NCBI GenBank assembly: GCA_902791865.1
Contig: CADAXK010000001.1
Location: 128,205 to 192,204, forward strand
Length of the DNA: 64,000 nucleotides
Source of the DNA: an uncultured Bacteroidia bacterium
GTDB taxonomy: Bacteria > Bacteroidota > Bacteroidia > Bacteroidales > ML635J-15
Reading direction: 5' to 3'
A program made the translations under genes and the position numbers. How positions within the stretch are numbered: position 1 is the stretch's first letter; each line of letters starts with the position of its first letter. The notes beneath the pieces were generated by a model. It worked only from the letters and a program-made list of their open reading frames with translations. It searched no databases and was not told the DNA's origin. Below are positions 6,386 to 57,700 of this stretch, in pieces.

Positions 6386-9300
6386 ATGAAGAAAATAATT
6401 TGTACAATATTAATAATCAACCTGTTGCACATAGCGTCTGCACAAACATTTTTTATTAAAGATTCTCTGTTTTCAATAGGCACTACAGAATTCTACACTC
6501 CAGACAGCATCAAAATAAAAGCCATACTTTTAAAAAACGGCGACAATCGCGACTCTGACTTCTTTCCCATATACAAAAAGACACTTGTTGCCAACGATGG
6601 CTCATATATAACTGAAGTATCGCTGAAGAATGTTTCATATAGCCAGGTCGACTATAATATATATAAAGGTATATACAGAATATCGGAAATTGGAAACGAA
6701 CCTGAAATAAAAGCTACAGCTGTAAAATTCAGAAAACAACAACTAATAGAATTCGAAATGATGCCGCTGAGAAAAAACCCAGCAACCGGAGCCATTGAAA
6801 TTGCCGACCATTTCGAGTGCGAGATAAAAACAAAACAAGTCAAGTCTAGGGATTCTGGACGCCAATATGCAAGCACATCAAAAATGGCTTCTGGAAAATG
6901 GTACAAAATAAAAGTATCGGAATCAGGAATATACAAAATCACATACGCTCAATTAAAGGAAATGGGATTCAGCAATTTCTCGTCAATAGGCATTTTCGGA
7001 TATGGAGGCATGGAATCGAAGACTATCCGCGACAATAATCCTCAGATATTTGCCGACAAGTACATAGACGACATGCCAGAACGAAGCATACTAAAAGTAG
7101 ACGCCAACGGAAATGGAACTTTCGACAATGGCGACTATCTCCTATTCTACGCCGACGGTCCACATAATATAAGGTACAACACAAATGGATCTTTCACGCA
7201 TGAAATTCACAACTATTCCGATTACTCATACTATTTTGTTTCGGACAAAGGCACATGGAAAACAGCAACAAACATTGCATCGGAAAGTTCAGCAAACTTA
7301 ACAGTGAACACATACGACAAATATTCATTCCTTGAAAAAGATTCAATCTCAATCGCAAAGTCTGGACGCAACTTATTCTGGAGAAGTCTGGGATATTACA
7401 CAACAATGAACGAATCAATAACAGAAATTAACGCCACATCGGACACAGCGACCACATACATGCACTTTGCTGCAAATTCATCAACAATCAGCTACTTCGA
7501 CATCAGCATAAATGGAACATCCGTCGGCAGAGCCAATATTCCTGCATCAACTGCAAACGGAAATGAAATATATTTTTCTGCCAAATTCGTTCCTAGGGGC
7601 AACTCAACAAACTTTGTTATTACATACAACAAAAGTTCCTCAACATCAATAGGATGGATTGACTACATTGCAATAAGCCTTCGCAAAAAGCTAAATATAG
7701 CAAACGGATTCGTTGACTTTAGAGACACTAAATCGGTTGGCTCTGGAAACATAGCAGAATTCTCTGTAGCACAAGCAAGTAGCAACACTATTGTATGGGA
7801 CATAAGCGACAGAATCAACGCAAAGTCAATCTCTGGTTCATTCGCATCGGGCACATACAAGTTCAAGGCGAAAACCGACACCTTGCACGAATATGTAGCA
7901 TTCACCCCATCATACTCATTCCCCTCTCCCATATACTCAAATGCAACTGACGTTGGTACGGTGGAGAACCAAAACCTACACGGATTGCAGAATGCAGACT
8001 TAATAATAATAACTCATCCTAACTTCCTTGCACAAGCAAACGAAATCCAAAGAATACACCAGACTGCCGAAAACATGTCGTCGATAATAGTCACTCCACA
8101 AAAAATATACAATGAATTCTCATCTGGCACGCCAGACATCTGCGCAATGAGAAACTTCATTAAGATGTTCTATGATAGATCTTCTGCGACAAACATGCCC
8201 AAGAACGTACTTTTGATTGGAGACGGAAGCTATGACAACAAAACATCCGATGGAAGTGTTTCTAACCTCATACTGACATACCAAACCCAGAACTCATTAA
8301 CAAACACAATGACAATTACTTGTGACGACTTCTTCGTATGCCTCGACGAAGGAGAAGGCGAAGTACAGTCGACTGACAAAATGGATATGGGAATAGGACG
8401 TATGCCAGTGAATACCACAGAAGAAGCTAACAATGCTGTTGACAAACTACGTAGCTACTATTCGCAAAACAGTTTTGGAAACTGGAAAAACAGAGTTACA
8501 ATTATAGCCGATGATGCTGAAAACAACGAAACTGTACATCAGGTAAATGCTGAAAATATGATTGCTGCTCAACTTGAATTCAGCGCTGAATACCTTAACA
8601 TTGAAAAAATATATCTTGATGACTACGAACAAGTGTACACATCTACAGGAAACTCCTATCCCGATGTCAACAAGGCAATCGTCGACAACATAAACAATGG
8701 AACCTTGCTTCTTACATGGGTTGGACATGGAAATCCTAAAACATGGGCTCACGAAAACATATTTTCATTAAACACAATCAGAACATTACAAAACAAGAAC
8801 AAGTATCCGTTTTTCGTAACTGCAACCTGCGACTTCACACCATTTGACGACCACACAATAGAAACCGGAGGTGAACTACTGTTTAACGTCTCAAATTCCG
8901 GAGCAATCGGACTATTAACAACAGTAAGACAGGTTTATTCAACAAAAAACGAAAGACTTGTTAAGAATTTCTACAAGTACCTGTTTGAAAGTCACCTTGA
9001 AGAAAACGCTGGTTCGCAGCCCAAGACTATTGGAGAATGTGTTATGCTCGGAAAGAACGAAACAGGAGACTTTAACATGAGGTCATTCGTAGTAATTGGC
9101 GACCCAGCAATAACATTGTCGCAACCAAGATATACGGCAAAGACAACGATGGTCAACGGAATACCAGCCTCTGAATTCACAGACACTATAGGTGCAACAG
9201 GTCTAGTATCATTAGAAGGAGCTGTATATGACGAAAATGGAAATATTGCAAACAATTTCAACGGAGTTGTATATACTTCGGTTTACGACAAGCGCAACAC

Positions 9301-11051: not shown

Positions 11052-12062
11052 TTAGTTAACCCTAAATTCAACATTCAAATAAATGTACGATTTGATGGGA
11101 TTTGTGTTGACACGAGGCAACCAACCCTGATAATTGAGCGAAAGCCTTACAAAATCGACCACTTTCCAGTCGCAACCAGCCACAAGTGCCATACCGTCAT
11201 CAACCACCGTCCATGCAGGCACATATCCGGTAGAGCGAGACGACGTAAGGTAGTCGTACCGAGCAAATAAATTCAATTTGTCCTTTATTATACCATAAAT
11301 AATATACGCGCTCGCTCCGTGCTGAACAATCTTTCGAGGAGAAAACTTTGCATTATACTCGGCTCCTATTCGCAGTTGAGGGATTATTGTTGCGCCAGCA
11401 AATCCTCCGACAGTATAGAGGTCATCACCTTGAAAAGAATATGTAGAATGGGCTTTCAACTGCAATTCCTTGATTGGCGAATAGTTAAGCGATAGCGAAT
11501 AGTAATATTTACCATACGAAACGCTATCGTCCTTGATTGTTCCTGTCATCATACCGAACTCAAGCGACAGATTGTCCAAAAAATCGTATTTCCCATTGAA
11601 ACCCAAGTCGATAGATGGCAAAAACCTATATTCATCAAGGTATGATTTGAAAATATAACGTGCCCCCCAGAATTTCTGTTGCGTCATGTGTTGCATATTG
11701 TCAACCAAACCAGTGTTGAGCAAAAATTTTCCCTTTTTCCATGAAATATACATGGCACGCAAATACACATTCACAGTGTTGTAGTTTTGTCCCAACGGAA
11801 GATTTGGGCTGACATCCAAGCGGATAATCGAAGAAAATCCCTTTGGCACATAGAACTGGTAGCCGAAAGTAGCTCGCTTTATTTCAAAGTTGGGTTCATG
11901 TGTATCACCGCCTATCCCTTGATGAAAGTTCGAGAACAGCATGATTTCGGGAACGGCCTTATACTTTGATGTATCAGAAAGTGCAGGTTGGCTAGCATTG
12001 GCACATTCGACCGAAAGCACCGCTATAGAAATAAATATCAAGTATTTGAAAAAATGTTTCAT
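11052..12062 (-). CDS. Putative outer-membrane beta-barrel (porin-like) protein
   Basis: Signal peptide MKHFFKYLIFISIAVLSVECANA, alternating beta-strand pattern and C-terminal aromatic residues. The start at 12062 is supported by a -7 box at 12080-12087; the track start at 12251 lies upstream of that promoter. Confidence 0.5.
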   Translation of the reverse strand: MKHFFKYLIFISIAVLSVECANASQPALSDTSKYKAVPEIMLFSNFHQGIGGDTHEPNFEIKRATFGYQFYVPKGFSSIIRLDVSPNLPLGQNYNTVNVYLRAMYISWKKGKFLLNTGLVDNMQHMTQQKFWGARYIFKSYLDEYRFLPSIDLGFNGKYDFLDNLSLEFGMMTGTIKDDSVSYGKYYYSLSLNYSPIKELQLKAHSTYSFQGDDLYTVGGFAGATIIPQLRIGAEYNAKFSPRKIVQHGASAYIIYGIIKDKLNLFARYDYLTSSRSTGYVPAWTVVDDGMALVAGCDWKVVDFVRLSLNYQGWLPRVNTNPIKSYIYLNVEFRVN

Positions 12063-24994: not shown

Positions 24995-25028
24995 AATCCT
25001 CGTATCGGTTTCGATGCGAGGATTTTTT
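24995..25028 (+). terminator. Rho-independent terminator after the S1-like peptidase gene
   Basis: AATCCTCG-T-ATCG-GTTT-CGAT-G-CGAGGATT followed by TTTTAT. Confidence 0.7.
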
Positions 25029-25105
25029 ATCATTATTAATTGTCCTTTATTCATTATCAATTATCCATTATCAATTGTTCATTGTCAATTATCCATTGTT
25101 AACTA
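25029..25105. repeat. Degenerate 7-bp tandem array (TYMATTR x about 11)
   Basis: The sequence reads atcatta ttaattg tccttta ttcatta tcaatta tccatta tcaattg ttcattg tcaatta tccattg ttaacta. It abuts the -7 box of the DUF2851 gene. Confidence 0.85.
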
Positions 25106-25111
25106 TATTTG
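25104..25111 (+). promoter_or_regulatory. -7 promoter box (TATATTTG) for the DUF2851 gene
   Basis: Exact TAnnTTTG match, 18 nt upstream of the ATG at 25129. Confidence 0.5.
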
Positions 25112-25128
25112 CACAAAACAACATTGCC

Positions 25129-26427
25129 ATGCACGAGGATTTTCTACATTTCATATACAAGAACCACCTTTGGATTGAAGGCACCGAACAGCTCACCGAC
25201 AATACACCTTTCGAGATAATCGACATAGGTCAGCATAACCACGATTCTGGTCCCGATTTTTTCAACGCTAAAATCAAAATTGACGGAATAATATGGGTTG
25301 GCAATGTGGAAATCCACGTCAATGCATCCGACTGGCACAAGCATCACCACGATGGCGACCACGCCTACGACAATGTCATACTGCACATCGTCTATAACTA
25401 CGACTGCGAAATAACACTGCAGAACGGACGCAGCTTGCCGACTTGGGAAATTTCGTTTCCGCAGACCATATTCAACCGTTATTCCGACTTCAAGCTAAAC
25501 GAAAAGCCAATTGCCTGCGCCGACTACATTGACCTCGTGGATGACATACATATTGCCATGTGGATGGAAAAGATGGCTGTCGAAAGGCTCGAATACAAGT
25601 CGGAACACATAAGCGAAATTTTACAACACACCAACGGCAACTGGAACGAAACGCTATACATTGTCATCGCAAGAAATTTCGGATTCGGCACAAATGCATT
25701 ACCATTCGAGATGCTTGCAATGCAAACGCCACTCAACGTAATGCTTCACAATGCTGACAATCTGTTTGCTCTCGAGGCAATAACATTCGGTCAGGCAGGA
25801 ATACTAAATGGTCAACCCAAAGACGAATACACTCGAAAACTTGCCGACGAATACTCTTTCCAGAAAGCGAAATACAACTTGTCGCCAATTGCCGAATCGC
25901 TGTGGAAACGCTCTAAGATGCATCCGACAAATTTCCCAGAAACTCGCCTTGCTCAGTTTGCCGCTCTAATGCAGAATTTCCAAATCCTCATCGATGACAT
26001 ACTGAACGGCAAGTTCAATCCAAATTTTTTCGACAAACTAAAAACTTCCGAGTACTGGGAAACTCACTTTTCGCTTGGAGAAACCTCATCGAAACACAAA
26101 GCTACTAAACTTGGTCTGCAAGCAATAGACACAATCATGATTAACACCGTGATACCATTTTCGTACATCTACGGCAAGACCACAAACCCCAATTTCGACA
26201 GCGAAAAAATCATTGACATGCTACACGCTACCAAAGCCGAAAGCAACAGGGAAACAAGAGCATTCACCGACATAAACAAAATAAAGTGCGAATCTGCCTT
26301 CGACTCACAGGCTCTGCTTAACCTCAAAAAGAACTACTGCGACCATAAACGCTGCCTGAATTGCAATATCGGATTCCAGATAATGAAAAAGGTTTCGAGT
26401 TTAACTATGGCAGAATCTCGTTTCTAG
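25129..26427 (+). CDS. DUF2851-family protein
   Basis: MHEDFLHFIYKNHLW...GPDFFNAKIKIDGIIWVGNVEIHVNASDWHKHHHDGDHAYDNVILHIV matches my memory of DUF2851. The start is moved from the track start at 25075, which lies in the repeat/promoter region. Confidence 0.7.
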   Translation: MHEDFLHFIYKNHLWIEGTEQLTDNTPFEIIDIGQHNHDSGPDFFNAKIKIDGIIWVGNVEIHVNASDWHKHHHDGDHAYDNVILHIVYNYDCEITLQNGRSLPTWEISFPQTIFNRYSDFKLNEKPIACADYIDLVDDIHIAMWMEKMAVERLEYKSEHISEILQHTNGNWNETLYIVIARNFGFGTNALPFEMLAMQTPLNVMLHNADNLFALEAITFGQAGILNGQPKDEYTRKLADEYSFQKAKYNLSPIAESLWKRSKMHPTNFPETRLAQFAALMQNFQILIDDILNGKFNPNFFDKLKTSEYWETHFSLGETSSKHKATKLGLQAIDTIMINTVIPFSYIYGKTTNPNFDSEKIIDMLHATKAESNRETRAFTDINKIKCESAFDSQALLNLKKNYCDHKRCLNCNIGFQIMKKVSSLTMAESRF

Positions 26428-26459
26428 CCGTTTGATTTTGTTCAAAAAAAAAACATGTT

Positions 26460-26566
26460 GTCTGGATTTGCTATCCAGACAGCGTGAATATAAGGATTTA
26501 TAATCCGCTTATGTCTGCGCATTACAAATGCTGATACTCGCATGTGTCGGATTACAAATCCGACAC
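26460..26566 (+). other. Array of four related small stem-loops (GGAT..ATCC / GCAT..ATGC with ATTACAAAT loops)
   Basis: h1 is 26460-26480, GTCTGGAT-ttgct-ATCCAGAC. h2 is 26494-26506, GGATT-tat-AATCC. h3 is 26519-26531, GCAT-tacaa-ATGC. h4 is 26544-26566, GTGTCGGAT-tacaa-ATCCGACAC. A T-run follows at 26580-26586. Confidence 0.45.
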
Positions 26567-26618
26567 AACAAAGGGATGTCTTTTTTGCAAATCAAATATT
26601 TTCTATTACTTTTGCATC

Positions 26619-26704
26619 GGCGCGATGAATTAATCAAGCCGTCACCTAGACCCTCCCTTGTGGAGGGTTTAGCCCTTTTATATGGTGGTGCGAAGCATTT
26701 TTTT
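26619..26704 (+). ncRNA. Candidate small RNA, family A copy 1 (unclassified)
   Basis: The -7 box TACTTTTG lies at 26607-26614. An 11-bp hairpin CTAGACCCTCC-cttgt-GGAGGGTTTAG is present, and the T7 run is at 26698-26704. No ORF is present. The paralog at 27477-27565 carries a compensatory C:G to A:T change in the stem. The ends are estimates. Confidence 0.5.
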
Positions 26705-26740
26705 GCTTGCAATTTTAATATTTCCACTATTTTTGTGACA

Positions 26741-26794
26741 CAAATAACTTGCTGAGGTCACTGACGTCGGCTGCTCTCTTAGGAGGGCGTTTTT
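26741..26794 (+). ncRNA. Candidate small RNA, unit B (unclassified)
   Basis: The -7 box TATTTTTG lies at 26728-26735. The terminator is GCTCTC-ttag-GAGGGC followed by GTTTTT. No ORF is present. Confidence 0.4.
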
Positions 26795-26861
26795 ATAGAA
26801 TATGATTTATGAAATGGATTCTTTTTGTTATGCCACTTGCGATGAAAATTGAAAAGGAGAA

Positions 26862-27044
26862 ATGCAATGCTCAATTATGAACCGCCTGATATTTTACATA
26901 GTTGCAGATACGATAATTGCCATTTTGGCAGCTTGCCTTTTCAACGATTCCATTATAACAGACATTATCTTGATTATATTTATTTTAGGAGAAGTCGGCA
27001 TTGAGTTACTTTTGTGGTTAATCCGAAAAATTCTCGGATTCTGA
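26862..27044 (+). CDS. Possible small hydrophobic (two-TM) protein, 60 aa
   Basis: The ORF reads MQCSIMNRLIFYIVADTIIAILAACLFNDSIITDIILIIFILGEVGIELLLWLIRKILGF and is preceded by AAAAGGAGAAATG. I see no recognisable -7 box and recognise no family. It could be a chance ORF in AT-rich DNA. Confidence 0.25.
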   Translation: MQCSIMNRLIFYIVADTIIAILAACLFNDSIITDIILIIFILGEVGIELLLWLIRKILGF

Positions 27045-27066
27045 AAAAATTCCATAACTTCGCAGT

Positions 27067-27146
27067 TGTAAATCTGATTACAGAATGTGGAGGCGTTGTG
27101 CGTTTGTGCGCCGTGGCTTCCCTTCTGTTTTCAGATTTTCTTTTTT
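27067..27146 (+). ncRNA. Candidate small RNA, unit E (long hairpin plus U tail)
   Basis: A near-consensus -7 box TAACTTCG lies at 27055-27062. An extended hairpin is closed by AATCTGA (27071-27077) and TCAGATT (27131-27137), with inner CAGAA/TTCTG and GGCG/CGCC pairs. TTCTTTTTT follows. Confidence 0.4.
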
Positions 27147-27195
27147 AATTACAAATCATACATGAAATTCATAAATTTTCACTACTTTTGCCCTG

Positions 27196-27276
27196 CTTTC
27201 CGTTAAGGATTGTCGATGGTGGCGCGATAACTTCAAGCAGTGCCGGGTCGGTGGGGTAACGTCCACCGTTTTTTTT
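27196..27276 (+). ncRNA. Candidate small RNA, family D copy 1 (unclassified)
   Basis: The -7 box TACTTTTG lies at 27183-27190. The stem is CTGCTT...AAGCAG, and the terminator is CGGTGG-ggtaacgt-CCACCG plus T8. A near-identical copy lies 170 bp downstream. Confidence 0.5.
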
Positions 27277-27332
27277 GTCATTCTTGCACACGTCTGATAG
27301 TTTGCGGGCGGCTATACAAGAATGACTTTTTT
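27277..27332 (+). terminator. Strong hairpin plus T-run directly after D1 (second terminator or separate structured element, unit F)
   Basis: GTCATTCTTG-30 nt loop-CAAGAATGAC (10 bp perfect) followed by TTTTTT. It has no -7 box of its own. Confidence 0.45.
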
Positions 27333-27365
27333 GTCAATCAATTTTTTTTCACTACTTTTGCCCTG

Positions 27366-27444
27366 CTTTCCATTAAGGATTGTCGATGGCGGCGCGATAA
27401 CTTCAAGCAGTGCCGGGATGGTGGGGTAACGCCCACTTTTTTTT
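27366..27444 (+). ncRNA. Candidate small RNA, family D copy 2
   Basis: The -7 box TACTTTTG lies at 27353-27360. The body matches D1 with a few substitutions. The terminator stem is re-registered as GTGGG-gtaacg-CCCAC plus T8. Confidence 0.5.
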
Positions 27445-27476
27445 GTCATTCAAATAATTATTAATACTTTTGCATC

Positions 27477-27565
27477 GGCGCGTTGAGTAATAACAAGCCG
27501 TCACCTAGACCATCCCTTGTGGATGGTTTAGGCCTTTTATATGGTGGTGCACAAAACATTTTTTT
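27477..27565 (+). ncRNA. Candidate small RNA, family A copy 2
   Basis: The -7 box TACTTTTG lies at 27465-27472. The hairpin is CTAGACCATCC-cttgt-GGATGGTTTAG and the T7 run is at 27559-27565. Confidence 0.5.
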
Positions 27566-27600
27566 GCTTGCAATTATAACATTTTCACTACTTTTGCAGT

Positions 27601-27643
27601 GCGGGGGGTGTACCACCAATGTGGAGCCTCCCGTTCCTTTTTT
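27601..27643 (+). ncRNA. Candidate short RNA, unit C (hairpin plus U-run)
   Basis: The -7 box TACTTTTG lies at 27589-27596. The hairpin is CGGGGGG...CCAC-caat-GTGG...CCTCCCG, followed by TTCCTTTTTT. Confidence 0.35.
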
Positions 27644-27696
27644 ATGATACAAGAACGCCTTTTTTGTAATTCAAATATATCCATTATTTTTGCGGT

Positions 27697-27765
27697 GCGT
27701 GCCTGCGGATAACAACAGAAACCCCTGCACGTTCCTTTAAGCAGACTTGTGTCTGCTTATTTTTT
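27697..27765 (+). ncRNA. Candidate small RNA, unit G
   Basis: The -7 box TATTTTTG lies at 27685-27692. The 5' stem is CGTGC...GCACG, and the terminator is AAGCAGAC-ttgt-GTCTGCTT followed by ATTTTTT. Confidence 0.45.
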
Positions 27766-27820
27766 ATGATATTTCATCTGGCATTATTTTTTTTCATCGT
27801 TGGACTTAACATGGGAATTT

Positions 27821-27869
27821 TCAAATCATCGAATCATCGAATTTTCAAATCTTTCAAATCCTCAAATTA
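27821..27869. repeat. Degenerate 8-bp tandem array (TCRAATYN x6)
   Basis: The sequence reads tcaaatca tcgaatca tcgaattt tcaaatctt tcaaatcc tcaaatta. It lies upstream of the C69 peptidase promoter. Confidence 0.8.
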
Positions 27870-27895
27870 TTTTCTTTTGGTATTGGAATAAATAT

Positions 27896-27903
27896 TAAAT
27901 TTG
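27896..27903 (+). promoter_or_regulatory. -7 promoter box (TAAATTTG) for the C69 dipeptidase gene
   Basis: Exact TAnnTTTG match, 24 nt upstream of the ATG at 27927. Confidence 0.5.
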
Positions 27904-27926
27904 CGGTCAAACAAATAAAAATAGAT

Positions 27927-29642
27927 ATGAGAAAATTATTCGCACTATTGACTATCGCGCTTATGTTCAGCGCAAGTGCAAGTTTCGCTTGCACGAACTT
28001 CATTGTTACCAAGGGCGCATCAAACGACGGTTCCGCTTTCCTCAGCTACGCCGCCGACAGCCACGTTCTCTACGGTGAACTCTACTACCGTCCTGCTGCC
28101 GACTACCAGCCAGGCACAATGATGAAAATATACAACTGGGATTCTGGACAATACCTCGGCGACATTCCGCAGGTTCTCCATACCTATAATGTTGTTGGAA
28201 ATGTAAACGAACACCAGCTTGCAATCGGCGAAACAACCTACGGCGGACGCGAGGAACTCTGGGAAGGTGACGGCATTATCGACTACGGAAGCCTTATTTA
28301 CCTTGCTCTGCAGCGCGCAAAGACCGCCCGTGAAGCCATAAAGGTCATGACCGAACTCATGAGCAAGTACGGATATGTAAGCGAAGGCGAATCCTTCTCA
28401 ATCGTTGACAAGGACGAAGCTTGGATTCTCGAAGTTATCGGCAAGGGCAAAGGTCAGAAAGGCGCTGTTTGGGTTGCAAGAATGATTCCCGACGGATATG
28501 TTTCAGCTCACGCTAATCAGGCAAGAATCACCACTTTCCCGCAGGCAACCAAGAAGAGCAAGGATGTCGTTACTTTCAAGAACATCGACAAACTCCTCAC
28601 CGACAAGAACATCACCTGCGTTTACTCCGACGATGTTATCACTTTTGCTCGCGAAAAGGGTTACTTCAAGGGCAACGATGCCGATTTCAGCTTCTCCGAC
28701 ACATACGCACCAGTTGATTTCAGCGGCGCTCGCTTCTGCGAAATCCGCGTTTGGGCTTTCTTCAACGATGTTGCTGAAGGAATGGACAAGTACTGGGAAT
28801 ATGCAAAGGGGACCAAGATTGAATACGATGCAAACGGCTACGCAACCAACAGAATGCCTTTGTGGGTAAAGCCAGCTAAGCCTGTAACTCTCGAAACCGT
28901 AATGCACAACATGGGCAACCACCTCGAAGGTACCGAACTCGATATGAGCAAGGGAATGGGCGCAGGTCCTTTCAACTGTCCTTATCGCTGGAGACCAATG
29001 ACTTGGGAATACAACGGAAAGAACTACATCCACGAAAGAGCAACTGGAACACAGCAGACTGGTTTCTCGTTTGTAGCTCAGTTGCGTGGCAATTTGCCGG
29101 ATGTTCTCGGTGCAATCAACTGGTTTGGCGTTGACGACTGCGCAACAACGGTTTATGTTCCTATGTACGCATCAATCACCGAAATTCCATACGCTTACCG
29201 CGAAGGCAACGGCTCGATGATGAAATTCAAACCGGATGCTGCATTCTGGATTTTCAACCTCGTATCAAACTTCGCATACACACGCTACTGCGACATCTAT
29301 CCCGAAATCGAGACCGTCAGAAGAGACTTGCACAGAAGCTTCAAGGACGAAACCGCAAAGATTGAAGGCGACCTCCGCGAAGAAGCTGAAAACAATCCGC
29401 AGAATGTTGCAAAGAAACTTACCGAGTACTCAGCTAAGGCATCTGAAAATACAATGGTAACTTGGCAAAACCTCTTTGCTAGCTTGTTTACCAAATACGT
29501 TGACGGTAACATTAAGACAGAACGCGAAGTACCAGAAGGATACAAGTACTATGCACCGGAAGTTAAGCAGCCAAAATATGGCAACGACTGGTACAAGCAC
29601 ATTGTCGAGGACGACACAAAACACCTATTGGAAGCAAAATAA
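27927..29642 (+). CDS. C69-family dipeptidase (secreted)
   Basis: The signal peptide ends in SFA|CTNFIVTKGAS, which is the N-terminal nucleophile Cys context of C69 peptidases. Length is 571 aa. Confidence 0.8.
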   Translation: MRKLFALLTIALMFSASASFACTNFIVTKGASNDGSAFLSYAADSHVLYGELYYRPAADYQPGTMMKIYNWDSGQYLGDIPQVLHTYNVVGNVNEHQLAIGETTYGGREELWEGDGIIDYGSLIYLALQRAKTAREAIKVMTELMSKYGYVSEGESFSIVDKDEAWILEVIGKGKGQKGAVWVARMIPDGYVSAHANQARITTFPQATKKSKDVVTFKNIDKLLTDKNITCVYSDDVITFAREKGYFKGNDADFSFSDTYAPVDFSGARFCEIRVWAFFNDVAEGMDKYWEYAKGTKIEYDANGYATNRMPLWVKPAKPVTLETVMHNMGNHLEGTELDMSKGMGAGPFNCPYRWRPMTWEYNGKNYIHERATGTQQTGFSFVAQLRGNLPDVLGAINWFGVDDCATTVYVPMYASITEIPYAYREGNGSMMKFKPDAAFWIFNLVSNFAYTRYCDIYPEIETVRRDLHRSFKDETAKIEGDLREEAENNPQNVAKKLTEYSAKASENTMVTWQNLFASLFTKYVDGNIKTEREVPEGYKYYAPEVKQPKYGNDWYKHIVEDDTKHLLEAK

Positions 29643-33909: not shown

Positions 33910-33944
33910 AAGAAAATTCGATGATTTGATGATTAACAACGTTA

Positions 33945-34000
33945 TCAATTATTAATTGTCAATTATACATTATTAATTGTTAATTGTCAATTGTCCATTG
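33945..34000. repeat. Degenerate 7-bp tandem array (TYMATTR x8)
   Basis: The sequence reads tcaatta ttaattg tcaatta tacatta ttaattg ttaattg tcaattg tccattg. It is the same unit family as 25029-25105, and it overlaps the last codons and stop of the GNAT gene. Confidence 0.85.
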
Positions 34001-51728: not shown

Positions 51729-54700
51729 TTAATTCTTCACCACCTGCCTATTTATCACAAAATCTGTTGTGCTTACCCTTACATTATAAGCAGCTGGCGG
51801 AAGATTGTAAAGATTCAATATTGTCTCATAGCTATTTTGTGGTGCATCTACCTTTTCGAACATAATCAGCTTGCCAAGCATATCATACACCTCAATGCGA
51901 GCAGGACGATTTTCGAAGTTGTCGAGGACAAGCGTAAGTTCGCCGTTAAACGGGTTCGGGTATGCCTGAACGTCTGGTTCACCGACTTCTGGTTCTTCGC
52001 ATGCTGCAACTATAATTTCCGAAACGGTACGCGAGCCATCATAGTCAACCTGAACTAAGCGGTAATAATTGTCACCACCATGGAAACCATAGTCTGTGTA
52101 TGAGTAGTCGAGCGGTTCAATCGAATTTCCTGCACCTGCTACGCGAGCTATCTCAGTGAAATTTATTGCATCGTCGGATTGCTCAATTACAAAGTAGTCG
52201 TTATTGCGCTCGGTAGCGGTTGTCCACTCAACAAGAACTGACTTTCCGTCACAAATTGCATTGAATGAAACAAGCTCTATTGGCAACAATGTTGACGGAG
52301 TCTTTGATCCAAGAGTCACATAATGGTTACTTGAACTCCTTGTTGCACGTATAGAAACATTTACGCTTATCTTTGTATTGCCGTTTTCTACAGTTCCTGG
52401 ACCGCCAATGTTTTTCCAGCAAGAGCCTAGCCACATTGCTCCGAAAATATCCTCGTCATCGTATGATGTAGCACCCGCGCCAAAATGGTCGGTAACTTCT
52501 GCTGACGAAACCATCAATGTGACATTATTCAATGCTACATTGGAAGAAACATTCCAGAACTCAATATTGCTCACGTGATCAAACTGAGGATCATTGCCAT
52601 CACAATTATCGTTTGCATTCCACCATCGTGGATAGTCAGACGGAAGGTCATTAGTACCAGCCACATTACGATAGCGTACTGTAGCCGAACCTCCGCTACG
52701 AGTTGCAGGAACAGCTATCGTTCCAAGGGTGTGTCCGTTACCAGTCGGGAATGTGAAGGCAGACGAACCAAACGCCTTAGTTACAGCACCATCGACATGG
52801 CTAAGAAGAGAAGCTTCGCTTGCCGTTGCTCCAGATACAAAATTCATATCACCTACGATAACACCCTTTGTGAATGCTGCTACGCCATTGACAGTTATAC
52901 CATGCGGAGCGAAAATCTTCTTACCATCGACAACCTGGGCAAATGTTACATTTCCAAATTCCATTGCACTACTCAAGGTTTGATCGTTAGCACCGTTCAA
53001 TTCTATTATACTAGTATTATCGGCTACGAAAGTTCCGTTATTGATTATTGAGCCTGCAAGTCTAAGTGTTACATTCTCCATTATATGCAATTCGGCACCT
53101 GGCGCTACCTCTATGTTATTCACGGTTGCATCGGAATTCATATATGCCTGCTGAACATCCTGCAAGCAAGTGCCAGAACCACCTATAGCTATATAATAGT
53201 TCTTTGCTTCGGATGGCAATTCAGACGCAATAGAATAAGTGCCGTTATTATACTCATACCAGTTTGATGCGATGTTCCAGTTTGATGTTCCGCCTCTCCA
53301 TACATAGTCGCATGTAGATGTGATTGATATGTCCGGATGGTTGACAGTAATCTGCACTCCTGCATTGGCAGTTGTTCCACAACCATTTGTTGCAGAGTAT
53401 CTTATATAATATCCATCCAAATCTTGCTGAATGTTGCTATTGGTAAATGGAGTATAAGTTCCGTTCTGCGAAGGACTTATTTCCCAACCTTCTGCTAAGA
53501 TACTTGAACCATTTGGAATTACTGTTGGTGCAGTAAGGTCAAGAGACTCTCCTACACAAATAGCATCAGGTGCAGATATTGCAGAAACTGCAGGCTTGTC
53601 GTTGACGGTTATCTGCACAGACGACATCGTTACACTTGAGCAGTTGTCGGAAACAATAACTCTGTAGTATATTGTTCCTGTTGATGTCGTAGGTGGCGTA
53701 AACGAGCTACTGTTGGAGCCTGTGTTATTCCAAGTTGAGCCGTTAGTGGAATACTGCCACTGGTAGTTGTACGAACCACTTCCACTAGATGGAGTTGTCG
53801 AAAGAGCGGTAGCTGTAGCGTTAAGGCAGTAGTCGTTGGCATTTGCGATTGCGGATGATACGAGATCGCCGTAGACGTTGTAGTCGACTCGGAGGAAGTC
53901 TGTAGTCGTGCAGCCGTCGCTTACCCTTACATAGTAGGTATGGCTGCCGGCAGTTCTGCTGCCGCCTGTATAGGTAGCTGAGGTTGCGCCGCTGATTGCG
54001 CTGCCTGCGTTGGCAGCCGTGTACCACTGGTAGGTGACTGGACTATTATTGTTGCTTGAGGTAACGCTGGCAGTAAGACTAGGCGTCTCGCTCTGGCAGT
54101 AGTTCGCTCGGCTGGCTGATGCTGTTGCAGTGATTGTGTTGTAGACGTTGTAATCGACCCTGATGAAGTCCGTAGTCGTGCAGCCGTCGCTTACCCTTAC
54201 ATAATAAGTATGACTGCCTGCTGTCCTGCTGCCGCCCGTATAGGTTGCCGAGGTTGCGCCGCTGATTGCGTTGCCTGCGTTGGCTGCCGTGTACCACTGG
54301 TAGGTGACTGGACTGTTGTTGTTGCTTGAGGTAACGCTGGCAGTAAGACTAGGCGTCTCGCTCTGGCAGTAGTTTGCTCGGCTGGCTGATGCTGTTGCAG
54401 TGATGGTGTTGTAGACGTTGTAGTCGACACGTATAAAATCTGTAGTCGTGCAGCCGTCGCTTACCCTTACATAATAGGTATGACTGCCTGCTGTCCTGCT
54501 GCCGCCCGTATAGGTTGCCGAGGTTGCGCCGCTGATTGCGCTGCCTGCGTTGGCCGCAGTGTACCACTGGTATGTAACTGGACTGTTGTTGTTGCTCGAG
54601 GTAACGCTGGCTGTAAGACTAGGCGTCTCGCTCTGGCAGTAGTTTGCTCGGCTGGCTGATGCTGTTGCCGTGATGCTGTTGTAGACGTTGTAGTCGACAC

Positions 54701-57700
54701 GGAGGAAGTCTGTAGTCGTGCAACCGTCGCTTACCCTTACATAATAAGTATGACTGCCGGCAGTTCTGCTGCCGCCCGTATAGGTTGCCGAGGTTGCGCC
54801 GCTGATTGCGCTGCCTGCGTTGGCAGCCGTGTACCACTGGTAGGTGACTGGACTGCTGTTGTTGCTTGAGGTAACGCTGGCTGTAAGACTAGGCGTCTCG
54901 CTCTGGCAGTAGTTTGCACGGCTGGCTGATGCTGTTGCAGTGATGCTGTTGTAAACGTTGTAGTCGACACGGAGGAAGTCCGTAGTCGTGCAGCCGTCGC
55001 TTACCCTTACATAATAGGTATGGCTACCGGCAGTTCTGCTGCCGCCCGTATAGGTTGCCGAGGTTGCGCCGCTGATTGCGCTGCCTGCGTTAGCTGCCGT
55101 GTACCACTGGTAGGTGACTGGACTGTTGTTGTTGCTCGAGGTAACGCTGGCTGTAAGGCTCGGCGTCTCGCTCTGGCAGTAGTTTGCTCGGCTGGCTGAT
55201 GCTGTTGCAGTGATGGTGTTGTAGACGTTGTAGTCGACACGGAGGAAGTCTGTAGTCGTGCAACCGTCGCTTACCCTTACATAATAGGTATGGCTACCGG
55301 CAGTTCTGCTGCCGCCCGTATAGGTTGCTGAGGTTGCTCCGCTGATTGCGCTGCCCGCGTTGGCCGCAGTGTACCACTGGTAGGTGACTGGACTGTTGTT
55401 GTTGCTCGAGGTAACGCTGGCTGTAAGACTAGGCGTCTCGCTCTGGCAGTAGTTCGCTCGGCTGGCTGATGCTGTGGCCGTGATTGTGTTGTAGACGTTG
55501 ACCAGCACGCTGCTGCTTGCCGAGCAGCTACTACCGCTCCAAACTGTCACCCGATATGTTGTATTAGCTGTAACAGTAGGTGTTACAACAGCAGATGAAC
55601 CAGAACCACTGGGAGTCCAAGTATAAGTAGTACCTCCAGAAGGCGCTGTCAGTGTAACCTGGGAACCATTGCAAACAATAGATGCTGATGCTGTAACATT
55701 AGCGATTGACGACAAAGAAACATAAACTTCATATTCAGAAGTTGAGGTTCCATAATAATTATCGACAATCAAATAGTATGTAGTTCCGGCTGAAAGAGAA
55801 ACTGATACATCATCAAATACAGCATCATCCCAATGTGTTATTTCTGTTCCTTCATTATCACAAGATGACAACAAAAAGAAGTCGGCATCACCATCATTTG
55901 TTGTACCATAAAACGAATAGGTACCCGTTACTGCTGGCGTAAAGGAATAAACCTTTTCTTCTCCAACTTCGTCATATGTCCAATCTCTTACATTAGGATA
56001 ACTATCCCAGGCGCCAATTCTTCCCAACGTACCCGAATATGTCTGTCCACATGTCATTACAGTAACATCCGAACATGGATTCGGGCAAACATCATATATT
56101 GCATACAGGTAAATATTTGAACCGACTGTTATTTCATCACCTGGCAGATAACTGGAGCCACCGCCATTTGCTCTTGTCGCCCATCTCATAAAACATTTGT
56201 TCGAACATGCAACAGGAGGACGCACGTTTACCGTTGCAGGATTGCAACTCCACATTGGCACATCTTGTACTTCGTAATCGCTTTCTCCATTACAATTAAT
56301 TCCGTAATCGTAATATATATGGTAATATCTCCAAGTTGCATCGCGTTCAACAGTATTTTCACATCCATTTTCATTTTGGGCAGTGAAAGAAAAGCCATCT
56401 CCATCATTATAATCTCCAGTACCATAATGATAAGTCAAACATTCAACCATAGGATATTCATTACAATCATGGTCCAATGACATGCTTATCGTTGGTGGGG
56501 CATTATTTCTAGATGCCACAAGAATGTCGTCGCAAGCAAAATCGTCGCTACCGTACAATGTAATTGTAATGCTTCCTTGTGCCGTCAAGGTAAAGTCACA
56601 ATACCTTTGCACCCATTCACCTTGACTTCCCAATAATTGTTCTCCAGATGTCGGGCTACCGCTGACTGTTGTACCACTAACAGAAAGAGTACACTTGCCC
56701 CCCGATGATACATCCATGAACCAAGCCGAAAGCCTATAATCGCCTGCTGGGACATCTGTAATAGTCTTTACATAGAAATCTCCTGTTCCATCGGCCTGGA
56801 ACATGTAACCTCGCGTAACATCATCGGCAAATGTGTGATCCGATTTATTCATTACCCATCCATTACTCGAAGCATCGTGATATGTATTTTTATTTATAGC
56901 ATATACCTTAGTATAGCTTGTCGTACAATTGCTATTACCATGATGACGGCAATCACCGAAGTCCTGCGAGCTAGTATATTGATAATGGTTAACATAATTA
57001 CATCGTGTATAGTCACCTGCGTGTGTCCATGTAGCAGGAATTATGCCTCCACCCGAAGTATAGTTATGATCTGGATCCGCCAGTTTGTGAGGACCAGCAT
57101 ACCTCTCATCCTGCACATCGTTTCCACCGAAGTCATCGTAATAGACAATGATACCGCAAGAGGAGGAAGCCCCACCTTCAAATGTAAAGCATATATCATC
57201 AAGTCCCACTCCGTAACCATAATGGTCAGTAAATTTGAATCCAATCTGATAATTAGCAGCAAATCCTGTTAGAGTTACAGATTGCTCCGTCCACGAAGAA
57301 TGAGCACTGGTCGTACTGAACAATTCTGTCCATGTCCCACCGTTGACGCGATAACAAACAGCAATTTCATCTATGTCCCCGGCCCAACTTCTATTGACAT
57401 ACGAAAATGTTAAAGAAGCCGATGACACATTGCTCAAATCCATTTCAGGACTAACCAGATATGTTACATTACCTGATGTGCTATGAGTAATCCTAGCATT
57501 GTAGGATCCCGTGTTAGCACCAGTACTTGTGTTAGAATCTCCAATTCCTACCGACCAATAAGCACTACCACTACCCTCGCTAGTCCAACCAACGGGCATA
57601 GAACCAGACTCAAAATCGACACAGAAATCATCGGGAACAGAAACGGCAGGAACGATACAGAATTTAATTTGATTCTTTACGTTCATGATAGTTCCCGTAT

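Follow-up and report, generated by a model that had tools for sequence, protein, structure and literature searches.

The window, a stretch of 64,000 nucleotides, contains on a rumen Bacteroidales chromosome an island of about 1.5 kb between the genes for a DUF2851 protein and a C69 dipeptidase. The features of the island and of its right border are listed here; the RNAs are predicted.

26428–27926: island between the DUF2851 and C69 genes.
26455–26520, no strand assigned: conserved left-edge hairpin element, TGTCTGGAT..ATCCAGACA then AGGATTTATAATCC.
26584–26704, + strand: unit A1; −33 TTTG at 26584, −7 box 26607–26614, RNA about 26619–26704.
26702–26795, + strand: unit B; −33 at 26702, −7 box 26728–26735, RNA of about 55 nt, terminator 26772–26794.
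26809–26880, + strand: ORF1 remnant; a deletion of about 237 bp leaves 23 codons of a gene for a Septknot/DUF6150-type small secreted protein.
26877–27044, + strand: ORF2, intact, 55 aa with two hydrophobic helices.
27045–27146, + strand: unit C, probable 3′ UTR of ORF2; AUAACUUC in its 5′ part, long terminator hairpin 27070–27138 and T-run.
27183–27276, + strand: unit D1; −7 box 27183–27190, RNA about 27196–27276.
27277–27332, + strand: unit E, promoterless; 10-bp long-range hairpin and T-run, fold z = −4.8.
27330–27444, + strand: unit D2; −33 at 27330, −7 box 27353–27360, RNA about 27366–27444.
27442–27563, + strand: unit A2; −33 at 27442, −7 box 27465–27472, RNA about 27477–27563.
27563–27643, + strand: unit F; −33 at 27563, −7 box 27589–27596, RNA of about 42 nt, essentially a single hairpin and T-run.
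27663–27765, + strand: unit G; −33 at 27663, −7 box 27685–27692, RNA of about 68 nt, terminator 27738–27759.
27896–27903, + strand: −7 box of the promoter that belongs to the C69 dipeptidase gene itself, outside the island proper, in a region conserved in island-less relatives.

Nine TAnnTTTG boxes lie on the + strand of the island, compared with 1.6 expected from its dinucleotide composition (one of 5000 simulations reaches nine), a statistic in which the unit copies are related by duplication and hence are not independent events. The remainder of the window has 0.5 such boxes per kb per strand. The seven exact boxes of the original prediction, at 26607, 26728, 27183, 27353, 27465, 27589 and 27685, were verified, as was its near match at 27055 (TAACTTCG); two further boxes, at 27007 within ORF2 and at 27896 in the C69 promoter, were absent from it. 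Six boxes have a correctly spaced −33 TTTG, and these composite sites (TTTG-N17–23-TAnnTTTG), again found in copies related by duplication, compare with 0.18 expected (0 of 5000 simulations). Terminator-like hairpins number 10 versus 2.3 expected, and terminator and fold analysis located a hairpin and T-run after every box; the density of boxes and terminators is as unusual as had been proposed. The RNA genes are so tightly packed that the T-run of each terminator supplies the −33 TTTG of the next promoter. Sequence comparison also bears out the shared promoter cassettes and the duplicated bodies, A1 and A2 being 86% identical and D1 and D2 93% identical. Copy number and unit order vary among close relatives, as would be expected if the island grew by duplication via shared terminator/promoter cassettes.

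Of 13 related MAG loci, 12 lack the island; in these the DUF2851 and C69 genes are adjacent or have another gene between them. Four island variants are known, in the window and in the loci L013, L025 and L083, and they differ in unit content and copy number. The left-edge hairpin element, which can alternatively be read as a minus-strand terminator-like site following an A-run, recurs in L013 (from 8703) and twice in L025 (from 241 and 558). Over 750 nt of noncoding sequence the right half of the island is 99–100% identical to L013, versus about 95% in the flanking coding sequence. The island has no short tandem repeats and the window no CRISPR array, and BLAST searches of the island and unit sequences against GenBank phages and PLSDB plasmids returned nothing or chance matches only.

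The description of this interval as gene-free was wrong, for it contains ORF2 and the deletion remnant of ORF1. Intact ORF1 (102 aa) is present in L013, in L025 (two copies) and in L083; it matches phrog_6462 (E 1e-28) and has precomputed PF19647 hits, and it recurs as an antisense moron within the phage tail modules of L026, L082 and L084. The length and frame of ORF2 are constant in all four variants, and when the copies in the window, L013 and L025 are compared in pairs, third codon positions account for 10–12 of the 17–27 differences in each of the three comparisons. This coding-type substitution pattern marks ORF2 as a conserved gene for a predicted membrane protein. ORF2 gave no family match and has no relative among the viral contigs.

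The nine independent units originally proposed reduce to about six or seven. Unit C (fold z = −6.8) starts right after the ORF2 stop, and its claimed promoter is a one-mismatch box; because it lacks a real promoter and occupies this position, it is most simply, and probably, the 3′ UTR and terminator of the ORF2 operon. It is kept in L025 with a shortened apex. Unit B (fold z = −3.6), which has a single-stranded 5′ end with AUAACUU, may either serve the ORF1-ORF2 operon as a leader or attenuator or be a small RNA in its own right; in L013 and L025 its position ahead of ORF1 is taken by another promoter-plus-terminator leader, unit H. The operon would then consist of the B leader, the Septknot gene remnant, the gene for the 55-aa membrane protein and the C terminator. 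Units D and E together form a 170-bp repeat unit, and L013 has two E and three D copies; E may represent an additional terminator, or else what is left of another unit. Unit F has a paralogue, F′, in L013, with the outer stem retained (G·U to A-U) and the inner stem replaced. Unit G (fold z = −3.9) is identical in L013 and has a 5′ stem-loop with GCGGAUAACAACAG in the loop. Units B, F and G are, by their anatomy, candidate small RNA genes, and a search for relatives of B, E, F and G elsewhere found none. AUAACUU recurs in B, C and D, with four + strand copies in 0.7 kb versus 17 on both strands of the 64 kb. The locus as a whole would comprise a single operon for small proteins plus six or seven small RNA genes, each transcribed on its own.

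Units A and D are well supported, from sequence comparison, as unannotated small RNA genes; the original claim to this effect thus stands for A and D and falls for C and E. One hairpin, GGC-GCG-loop-CAA-GCC, is common to A1, A2, D1 and D2, and the pattern GGCGCG-N5–13-CAAGC occurs in the whole window only in A1 (26619), D1 (27221), D2 (27391) and A2 (27477). In A1 the hairpin (GGCGCG-ATGAATTAAT-CAAGCC, 26619–26640) is followed by a second one of 11–12 bp (26646–26672) and a U-rich tail; in A2 the two hairpins lie at 27477–27499 (GGCGCG-TTGAGTAATAA-CAAGCC) and 27504–27532. Compensatory pairs are present in both A hairpins in an alignment of five A copies. D1 has a small 5′ hairpin, the family hairpin core GGCGCGATAACTTCAAGC (27221–27238) and a terminator at 27249–27268 with T8, and in D2 the core and terminator occupy 27391–27408 and 27420–27437. 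The D core is invariant in nine D copies over five contexts, amid variable flanks. The closest relatives of the island copies are both found in the slot after a MuF gene. For the D type this is L024, a phage-like contig with a D unit after a MuF-like gene, about 88% identical to D1 and 92% to D2. For the A type it is the viral contig L154, whose RNA in the MuF-toxin slot is 84% identical to A1 and 87% identical to A2, each over 92 nt, and whose hairpin is identical to that of A2. Such identities would fit recent exchange.

These units represent an RNA family that is present in more than 100 other loci, with a Bacteroidota promoter, a terminator, and stems that change in sequence but are still paired. 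The hallmark hairpin has a 3-bp helix (GGC/GCC), a near-invariant inner loop (GCG/CAA), a second helix of 2–3 bp and a variable apical loop. Stated more generally, the family is defined by N3-GCG-(5–13 nt)-CAA-N3′, in which N3 pairs with N3′. The island A and D units have this arrangement, except that a G-A mismatch (GGC...GCA) replaces the outermost of the three N3/N3′ pairs in the D units; each unit has its own TAnnTTTG box a short distance upstream, with a terminator hairpin at the other end. A consensus-like box lies upstream of 76 of 79 phage members. Viral contigs were searched with the short 17-mer of the D core, long exact A and D patterns having given nothing, and 50 contained it, about 40 of them with the order promoter, P1 stem, core, P1′, terminator; the core sequence is identical in at least 40 phage units.

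Several measures indicate that the stems are maintained. The P1 arms pair with −10.6 kcal/mol in cognate combinations versus −6.6 ± 0.5 when permuted (0 of 20,000 permutations). In the model-fitted alignment 88.5% of cells are paired, versus 72.9% after shuffling and 23–41% after sliding, and both sides change in 12 of 15 pairs. P2 occurs in 11 paired combinations: GGC/GCC, GGC/GCU, GGC/GUU, GAC/GUC, GAC/GUU, AAC/GUU, AGC/GCU, AGU/GCU, GCC/GGC, GCU/GGC and UUC/GAA. All of these variants, which come from the toxin-anchored locus list (a permissive regular-expression census gave mostly false sites and was discarded), retain three N3/N3′ pairs. The RNA is, as judged from these alignments, a new structured family with covariation.

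The island copies depart in part from the phage pattern. The A units begin directly at the hairpin, an architecture shared with the phage members L151, L154, L155 and L158. The 5′ part of D differs from covariance model R1 in having an extra small hairpin, with UGUCGA as in subtype 2, and an outer P1 helix with a purine-rich 5-nt bulge (CGAAAAG type) is not found in the island units. The match of model R1 to the island D units is confined to the 17-nt core and scores 22 bits, equal to chance hits in coding sequence; since this score is at chance level, the assignment of the D units to the family rests on context and on L024.

No known RNA family had been recognized in the original prediction, and the Rfam search explains none of the units: Rfam 15 at gathering thresholds gave no hit in the whole window, and at E values up to 10 only chance-level hits in the island and the canonical phage units. 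In 11 phage loci the only Rfam match was RT-3, located in a neighboring diversity-generating retroelement rather than in the RNA unit. A full-text literature search returned no paper with the core sequence and none linking Hankyphage to noncoding RNA. ARAGORN found no tRNA or tmRNA gene in the window, and the sole likeness to a CRISPR repeat was a chance hit to CRISPR-DR24 (18 bits versus 35), located in one phage unit on the strand opposite to the RNA. Mimicry of a tRNA anticodon or T-loop found no support: UUCAAG resembles a T-loop but its flanks form no T-stem. Nor was there support for a kink-turn, for a MuA binding site or strong gyrase site, for a site of the loxP kind, or for mimicry of a CRISPR repeat.

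In all of 79 IMG/VR loci, which were retrieved through the protein domain at 29–100% identity to the query, the RNA unit is convergent to, and abuts, a gene for a CdiA_C-like domain. In most cases this domain forms the variable C terminus of Mu F, a head protein of hankyphage-like phages. The MuF-like proteins beside the RNA all share a C-terminal domain that matches Pfam CdiA_C at a borderline level (E 4e-6, 27.3 bits versus a cutoff of 26.6), and the same MuF-like protein has an N-terminal Phage_Mu_F match at E 3.6e-15. The pairing of RNA and domain is also seen in GenBank MT835523, and two chromosomal stand-alone domain genes of 160–177 aa (L168 and L171) are likewise paired with the RNA. 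The type of RNA varies with the identity of the toxin to the query, the D-like loop accompanying most toxins at 45–100%, the A architecture those at 33–43% and a third type those at about 30%. In Bacteroides phage p00 the MuF protein has a Gln_amidase (glutamine-deamidase) toxin domain instead; the RNA is absent, and the slot after MuF is occupied by a 77-aa ORF with its own promoter. In many phages the 3′ end of the RNA overlaps the 3′ end of the toxin gene, so that the terminator covers the last MuF codons, and the conserved hairpin falls outside the overlap. The predicted model of the CdiA_C-like domain has a pLDDT of 95.9. A PDB fold search with this model gave no significant match (best E 0.09) and a PDB sequence profile search with the domain gave nothing; the domain is weakly assigned as a toxin.

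Neither a CdiA_C-like domain nor a MuF gene is encoded in the 64-kb window or in the syntenic loci, and the A and D copies of the island are therefore orphans within these 64 kb, the part of the host genome covered, although a cognate toxin may lie elsewhere in it. The original prediction missed this status of A and D, as copies of an RNA whose other occurrences are strictly coupled to a toxin-like domain, and it missed the phage origin and narrow-lineage specificity of the island. In published work, small immunity ORFs come after Bacteroidales MuF toxins, and poly-immunity loci are mentioned as well (PMC11699363). The RNA occupies the slot in which the immunity gene of other MuF polymorphic toxins is located, and from this position and the strict coupling to the domain we propose an antitoxin or immunity role for the RNA. 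The chances seem to us evenly balanced that the island is a phage-derived small-RNA locus whose A and D members are orphan RNA antitoxin or immunity genes.

According to this proposal, the convergent small RNA would bind and neutralize the domain, in the manner of type III antitoxin RNAs. A1, D1, D2 and A2 encode variants of one structured RNA, and the D and A types would match different toxin clades. The island is a narrow-lineage accessory locus of phage origin, inserted between two housekeeping genes, and its toxin-less copies would be orphan immunity genes that protect the cell from the toxin of incoming phages. The sequence data show the anatomy of the units, their covarying structure, the strict genomic coupling and the phage origin; transcription, toxicity of the domain and its neutralization by the RNA are inferred. 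More tentatively, polymorphic toxin systems might here have their first immunity factor made of RNA: hankyphage-like phages would fuse a CdiA_C-like toxin to the ejected MuF head protein and shield the lysogen with the convergent RNA, and rumen Bacteroidales would have captured its alleles (D, A1 and A2) beside other phage morons in a chromosomal poly-immunity array, as a defense against toxin delivered by incoming phages. The orphan-immunity model covers A and D only; B, E, F and G fall outside it. Coupling alone fits an inhibitor, a cofactor, a substrate or a cis-antisense regulator alike.

An unlikely alternative is that the units encode trans-acting base-pairing sRNAs, carried as phage moron cargo that reprograms host expression, with the loop (AUAACUU and variants) as the seed and the MuF slot incidental. 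Their anatomy is that of Bacteroides sRNAs (a sigma-ABfr-type promoter, 45–90 nt, an intrinsic terminator), the loop is presented on a stable scaffold, AUAACUU recurs among the units as described above, and Bacteroides has multicopy sRNA families, one of which is also found in a phage (PMC11697453). On the other hand, the near-invariant sites are the inner-loop GCG/CAA and the scaffold and not just the loop, which is replaceable. Coupling to one domain in every one of the IMG/VR loci, and again in the stand-alone chromosomal pairs, would be unexpected for a free-standing regulator. A complementary target was sought in the window, in phage p00 and in the examined phage loci, and none was found: the loop complement in the window matches only the units themselves, 10-mer loop complements occur at chance level (including one within the C69 gene), the best loop duplex with phage p00 equals that of shuffled seeds, and pairing of the units with the ORF2, C69 and DUF2851 mRNAs gives z about 0. 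The pairing of E with the C69 5′ region (z = −3.1) was the single exception among 26 tests.

Less likely again is a role for the RNA as a partner of the domain and not its inhibitor, that is, as a cofactor, a guide, part of a packaged RNP or a cis-antisense regulator, the chromosomal copies being decoys or leftovers. The strict coupling would be explained equally well, RNA type and protein diverge in step, the terminator overlaps the last MuF codons in many phages, and the domain has no recognizable toxin fold. However, the hairpin lies beyond the overlap, and the orphan copies have nothing to overlap. Moreover, the domain occupies the position of an interchangeable toxin, as do the Gln deamidase of p00 and the published Bacteroidales MuF toxins (PMC11699363), and multi-allelic orphan arrays would be unusual for cofactors.

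It is improbable that the island is decaying phage-moron debris at a recombination hot spot, in which promoters and terminators persist by inertia and the units are now functionless. Decay would be consistent with the deletion of ORF1 in the window, with unit content that differs between all variants, with the lack of the island in most relatives, and with a promoterless E and an F that is little beyond a terminator. It is at odds with the near-identity to L013 of 750 nt of noncoding DNA between genes that diverge by about 5%, with a D core that stays invariant while its flanks vary, with the compensatory changes that maintain hairpin pairing among island variants, and with the coding pattern of substitutions in ORF2. 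Very improbable is the last alternative, that the units are cis-regulatory leaders or insulators of C69, toward which all are oriented, or type I antitoxins with ORF2, which is small and hydrophobic and has small RNA units on its flanks, as the toxin, for C69 retains its own promoter region in island-less relatives, a terminator closes every unit, unit duplexes with the ORF1-ORF2 mRNA equal shuffled controls (z −1.2 to +0.2), and phages carry A and D without ORF2.

To our knowledge, every immunity factor described so far for a polymorphic toxin is a protein. If, as the orphan-immunity model proposes, the RNA neutralizes the MuF-borne domain, polymorphic-toxin immunity would no longer be protein-only, and type III-like RNA antitoxins would be linked to phage virion proteins. 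The model would also account for a widespread unannotated RNA gene of hankyphage-like phages, one of which has been described as ubiquitous in the human gut worldwide. Through the coupling, a single small domain and an RNA of about 80 nt form a pair that lends itself to direct testing. The island would provide a natural example of orphan RNA "immunity" alleles, and it contributes a new covarying structured RNA for Bacteroidota. Even without immunity, there would remain a new RNA family with a strict protein partner and a rare dense array of sRNA genes.

Among known systems, the MuF polymorphic toxin immunity genes of temperate phages (Jamet et al. 2017, PMC5576092; Bxa/BAH/Bsi of Bacteroides stercoris, PMC11699363) resemble the RNA in two respects: the partner gene lies directly after the variable MuF C-terminal domain, and it switches with that domain, as between p00 and the RNA-bearing phages. 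As in orphan poly-immunity loci, toxin-less copies gather in chromosomal arrays. In these systems the partner is a small protein; here it is a small noncoding RNA whose gene lies on the opposite strand under a promoter of its own, and toxicity and protection are predicted. The type III toxin–antitoxin systems ToxIN, CptIN and TenpIN provide the model for an RNA that would neutralize a protein by direct binding; there too the genes are adjacent, the contexts phage-related, and stand-alone two-gene modules occur, as in L168 and L171. In contrast to type III systems, there is no toxin-processed tandem array of 34–36 nt repeats, in keeping with the lack of short tandem repeats in the island, and the RNA is single and convergent, with its own promoter and terminator, rather than upstream in the toxin operon. 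The protein is not ToxN/AbiEii-like, and in the RNA a covarying stem encloses a conserved hairpin.

The original prediction drew a comparison with the paralogous trans-acting sRNAs of Bacteroides, FopS and GibS (PMC11697453), which share with the units a canonical Bacteroidota promoter, a length of 65–90 nt, an intrinsic terminator, many paralogues and a phage copy. At the level of sequence the comparison fails: the FopS/GibS 5′ region (GUGUUUUUCAUAGUAUUAG... / R1 seed; northern probe target GUAUUAGAUUUAAGGUUAACAAA), with queries taken from the oligonucleotide table of PMC11697453, has no match in the window at up to three mismatches. Unlike the island, FopS genes are dispersed and confined to Bacteroidaceae, and the conserved part of FopS/GibS is a single-stranded 5′ seed. 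Tandem clusters of paralogous sRNAs are represented by LhrC1-4 of Listeria, OmrA/B, PrrF1/2 and Qrr. The island resembles these in its head-to-tail promoter-to-terminator sRNA genes, born by duplication in one intergenic region; LhrC-type clusters are made up of near-identical paralogues with one regulon, whereas the island has at least five unrelated bodies, a phage origin and a content that varies between relatives.

The c4 immunity RNAs of P1/P7 and the CI RNA of P4 act by pairing with transcripts of their own phage and arise by processing of longer RNAs. They too are small structured phage RNAs in which a conserved scaffold carries short variable loops that set specificity; unlike them, the island and phage RNAs yielded no complementary target. 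Finally, the units resemble phage morons, which are autonomous promoter-gene-terminator units on the opposite strand between structural genes, and this placement is that of the Septknot ORF1 in tail modules and of the RNA after MuF. The difference from typical morons is that the cargo is an RNA, and that its presence is tied to the neighboring protein domain.

The original observation on the interval between the DUF2851 and C69 dipeptidase genes is largely confirmed. Its reading as unannotated small RNA genes was right in kind for the A and D units, missed their origin and context, and was wrong in calling the island gene-free and in the number of units. ORF2 and the remnant of a second reading frame, ORF1, lie inside the island.

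Features of the island and its flanks (window coordinates)
25075-26427, DUF2851 gene, left flank of the island
26809-26880, + strand, ORF1 remnant of 23 codons, upstream of ORF2
26877-27044, + strand, ORF2, 55 aa, its product having two hydrophobic helices
27927-29642, C69 dipeptidase gene, right flank of the island

All seven TAnnTTTG boxes predicted on the + strand are found there, and the near match at 27055 is present too. With one more box at 27007 and that of the C69 promoter at 27896, the island totals nine on the + strand, where a first-order Markov model of its own composition leads one to expect 1.6 (nine or more arose in 1 of 5000 simulations); six boxes have a -33 TTTG at 17-23 nt, against 0.18 such composites expected, and ten terminator-like hairpins stand against 2.3 expected, all of these being real enrichments of copies that are kin by descent and not independent events. 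The minus strand of the island holds one box. Outside the island, the density in the rest of the window is 0.5 boxes per kb per strand, and only four other composite -33/-7 sites occur in the 64 kb, both strands counted. Each -33 TTTG is made up of the last bases of the T-run that closes the unit before it, which accounts for the very tight packing. The predicted transcripts fold as a 5′ element followed by a terminator. Duplication of two bodies is borne out by identities of 86% (A1/A2) and 93% (D1/D2), and comparison likewise upholds the relatedness of the promoter cassettes.

Repeats of other kinds occur in the window. AT-rich short tandem motifs of the TTATCAATTATTAATTG and TTTCAAATCATCGAATCAT types are found at 25027-25102, 33942-34000 and 27819-27870, in several of the intergenic stretches that precede genes. 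Two long tandem repeats, at 53871-55500 (270 bp x 6, 93% identity) and 58312-58843 (219 bp x 2.2), both fall within a 2810-aa minus-strand ORF (51729-60161) predicted to encode a giant repetitive protein.

The length and frame of ORF2 are unchanged across the four known island variants, namely those of the window, L013, L025 and L083, and its substitutions cluster at third codon positions in the three copies compared (window, L013 and L025). The perfect box TACTTTTG at 27007-27014, within ORF2, is not conserved in L013 or L025 and probably arose by chance. Intact ORF1 copies of 102 aa are found in L013 (8903-9211), in L025, which has two, and in L083. The protein belongs over its full length to phrog_6462 (E 1e-28), with a precomputed Pfam assignment to PF19647, “Septknot”; the Pfam scan run in this analysis gave no such match. 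In phage contigs the gene for the small secreted Septknot protein is solitary and lies between tail genes in the opposite orientation, as is characteristic of a moron. Septknot (PF19647/phrog_6462; also at locus L085, 5627-6321) recurs as a moron in phage tail modules and also occurs as tandem chromosomal paralogues.

The number of units, put at about nine, does not hold. Unit C starts straight after the ORF2 stop codon, with a mismatched box, and is best read as the 3′ UTR and terminator of an ORF2 operon. Unit E has no promoter, and unit B occupies the slot that in other variants holds a promoter-plus-attenuator leader ahead of ORF1. The layout of promoter, hairpin and terminator is seen in units B, E, F and G, apart from the missing promoter of E, but 0.9 Mb of phage loci held no relative of any of them. 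Predicted pairing between unit E (27277-27332) and the 5′ end of the C69 mRNA (27905-27990) exceeds that of shuffled controls (z = -3.1), but as 1 of 26 comparisons the excess may be chance. The heptamer ATAACTT, at 26744, 27054, 27227 and 27397, forms the apical loop of the D hairpin and also lies in single-stranded 5′ parts of B and C; these four + strand copies fall within 0.7 kb, compared with 17 on both strands of the 64 kb.

Sequence comparison and predicted structure place the D and A units in a widespread, previously undescribed RNA family. The invariant D core GCGCGATAACTTCAAGC matched 50 contigs in IMG/VR. About 40 of them share one gene plan, in which a TAnnTTTG box is followed by a 5′ arm, by the core with its complementary 3′ arm, and by a terminator; the others carry coding sequence for an MRDNFK peptide. 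The arms are very variable in sequence but keep their complementarity, cognate arms pairing at -10.6 kcal/mol compared with -6.6 +/- 0.5 for permuted partners (23 distinct members; 0 of 20000 permutations). In the alignment of the covariance model R1, 88.5% of cells are paired, compared with 72.9% when shuffled and 23-41% with a slid partner, and 12 of 15 pairs show both-sided changes; this alignment is biased towards structure, a bias from which the arm-permutation test is free.

The hallmark of the family is a hairpin with a 3-bp helix, P2 (GGC/GCC), an inner loop whose 5′ half carries GCG and whose 3′ half carries CAA, a second helix, P3, of 2-3 bp, and an apical loop. The pattern GGCGCG-N5-13-CAAGC occurs at exactly four sites in the window, which are A1, D1, D2 and A2. 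Among the A copies, compensatory substitutions are seen in P3 (A-U to U-A) and also in their second hairpin. Across the units anchored to the putative toxin domain discussed below, P2 takes eleven paired forms, from GGC/GCC via GAC/GUC, AAC/GUU and GCC/GGC to UUC/GAA, and GCG and CAA are nearly constant. The suggested Rfam search of window and island returned no matching family, which rules out any Rfam family; tRNA is also ruled out, as are FopS and GibS by sequence comparison.

The head-morphogenesis genes of the phage contigs (terminase, portal, Mu F-like) and the RNA gene are always on opposite strands; the RNA gene converges on the Mu F-like gene and abuts its stop codon. These contigs are related to Bacteroides phage p00, the “hankyphage”. 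The Mu F-like proteins beside the RNA all have a conserved C-terminal domain of ~150 aa, which matches Pfam CdiA_C (E 4e-6; 27.3 bits against a cut-off of 26.6). To avoid the bias of RNA-first discovery, IMG/VR was searched from the protein-domain side; this gave 166 relatives, of which 79 loci (29-100% identity) were kept, and all 79 have an RNA unit in the convergent slot, as does GenBank MT835523. RNA type follows the divergence of the putative toxins: at 45-100% identity to the query most of them are accompanied by the AUAACUU-loop RNA, at 33-43% by the A-type architecture, and at ~30% by a third type.

The island copies have close viral counterparts. The A2 hairpin is that of viral locus L154, to which A2 is 87% identical over 92 nt and whose contig also has a Septknot moron (L026). 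The D units match, at 88-92% identity, the unit that lies behind a MuF-like gene in the phage-like contig L024. Stand-alone genes for the CdiA_C-like domain occur in L168 (4001-4700; 177 aa) and L171 (4001-4600; 160 aa), with housekeeping genes on both sides, on chromosomal contigs of 193-309 kb; a convergent hairpin RNA gene directly follows the stop codon in each, making a two-gene module independent of MuF. In two other loci, the stretch from a reverse transcriptase gene to the RNA unit holds Rfam RT-3 matches of 128-154 bits (L027, 2528-2675; L049, 11712-11860), and the neighboring stretch in L056 yields a pseudo-ORF rich in Asn, as is typical of DGR template repeats. It therefore seems that RT-3 represents the hankyphage-type DGR RNA.

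The RNA is missing from phage p00 itself. The C-terminus of p00 MuF is a Gln_amidase papain-fold toxin domain, and the slot of the RNA is occupied by a short ORF, annotated only as a hypothetical misc_feature, which is a candidate immunity protein.

Occupant of the slot in p00 (L077, BK010646.1)
11608-11841, + strand, 77-aa ORF with its own TAnnTTTG promoter, convergent to MuF and overlapping the MuF stop codon at 11824

The source organism is an uncultured rumen Bacteroidales. Among 13 related MAG loci retrieved via DUF2851, the island is confined to the closest relative, L013; the other 12 have DUF2851 and C69 side by side or with a different gene in between. The C69 promoter region is kept even there. 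Over the right half of the island (27176-27925) identity between the window and L013 is 99-100%, compared with ~95% for adjoining coding sequence. With additional variants from a metagenome (L025) and a Logan assembly (L083), the four are unlike in content: L013 has three D and two E copies, A is present once or twice, and the differences include the extra units H, I, F′, J and K and a minus-strand unit. This last promoter-to-terminator unit, just before the C69 promoter in L025 (2330-2440) and L083 (1140-1215), has a TACTTTTG box and the terminator GCCCCTTCGGGGGC, so that units can occupy either strand. Every variant has at its left edge a conserved hairpin element, ATGTTGTCTGGATTTGC..ATCCAGACA..TGAATATTAGGATTTTTAATCC (window 26455-26520; L013 ~8703-8770), duplicated in L025 (241-330, 558-620), which may act as a terminator or be a repeat related to recombination.

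The simplest mechanism would be that the RNA acts as an antitoxin or immunity factor of the putative CdiA_C-like toxin domain. Its slot is where other MuF toxins hold their immunity gene, a different toxin domain is accompanied by a protein ORF in its place, the pair also occurs as stand-alone two-gene modules, and divergence of the RNA goes along with that of the protein. In the loci examined, apart from the island copies, the RNA was never found separated from the domain. A competing reading of the association makes the RNA a cofactor or cis-antisense partner of the domain. A confident model of the domain (pLDDT 95.9) has no significant match among PDB folds, and a profile search of PDB sequences was empty. 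Neither a MuF gene nor a CdiA_C-like domain is present in the window or syntenic loci, which makes the island A and D genes orphan copies. If the RNA confers immunity, the island may be a poly-immunity locus put together from phage cargo; the rival reading is that it is debris. A further rival makes the RNA a base-pairing regulator; searches of the window, of phage p00 and of the phage loci gave no target.

The coupling of RNA and protein is strict, apparently unreported before (we found no earlier report in Rfam, GenBank phage records or the searchable literature), and open to direct test. Type III antitoxins offer a mechanistic analogue of the proposed RNA action, but they have a tandem-repeat antitoxin array that the island units lack. 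The Mu F proteins beside the RNA and that of p00 appear to have the architecture of MuF polymorphic toxins, Mu F plus a variable C-terminal domain. In such toxins immunity genes come after the toxin (PMC5576092, PMC11699363), an arrangement shown in Bacteroidales for MuF toxins with ADP-ribosyltransferase, deaminase and alarmone-synthetase domains (PMC11699363). The nearest concept is the immunity gene of a MuF polymorphic toxin, with an RNA apparently in its stead.
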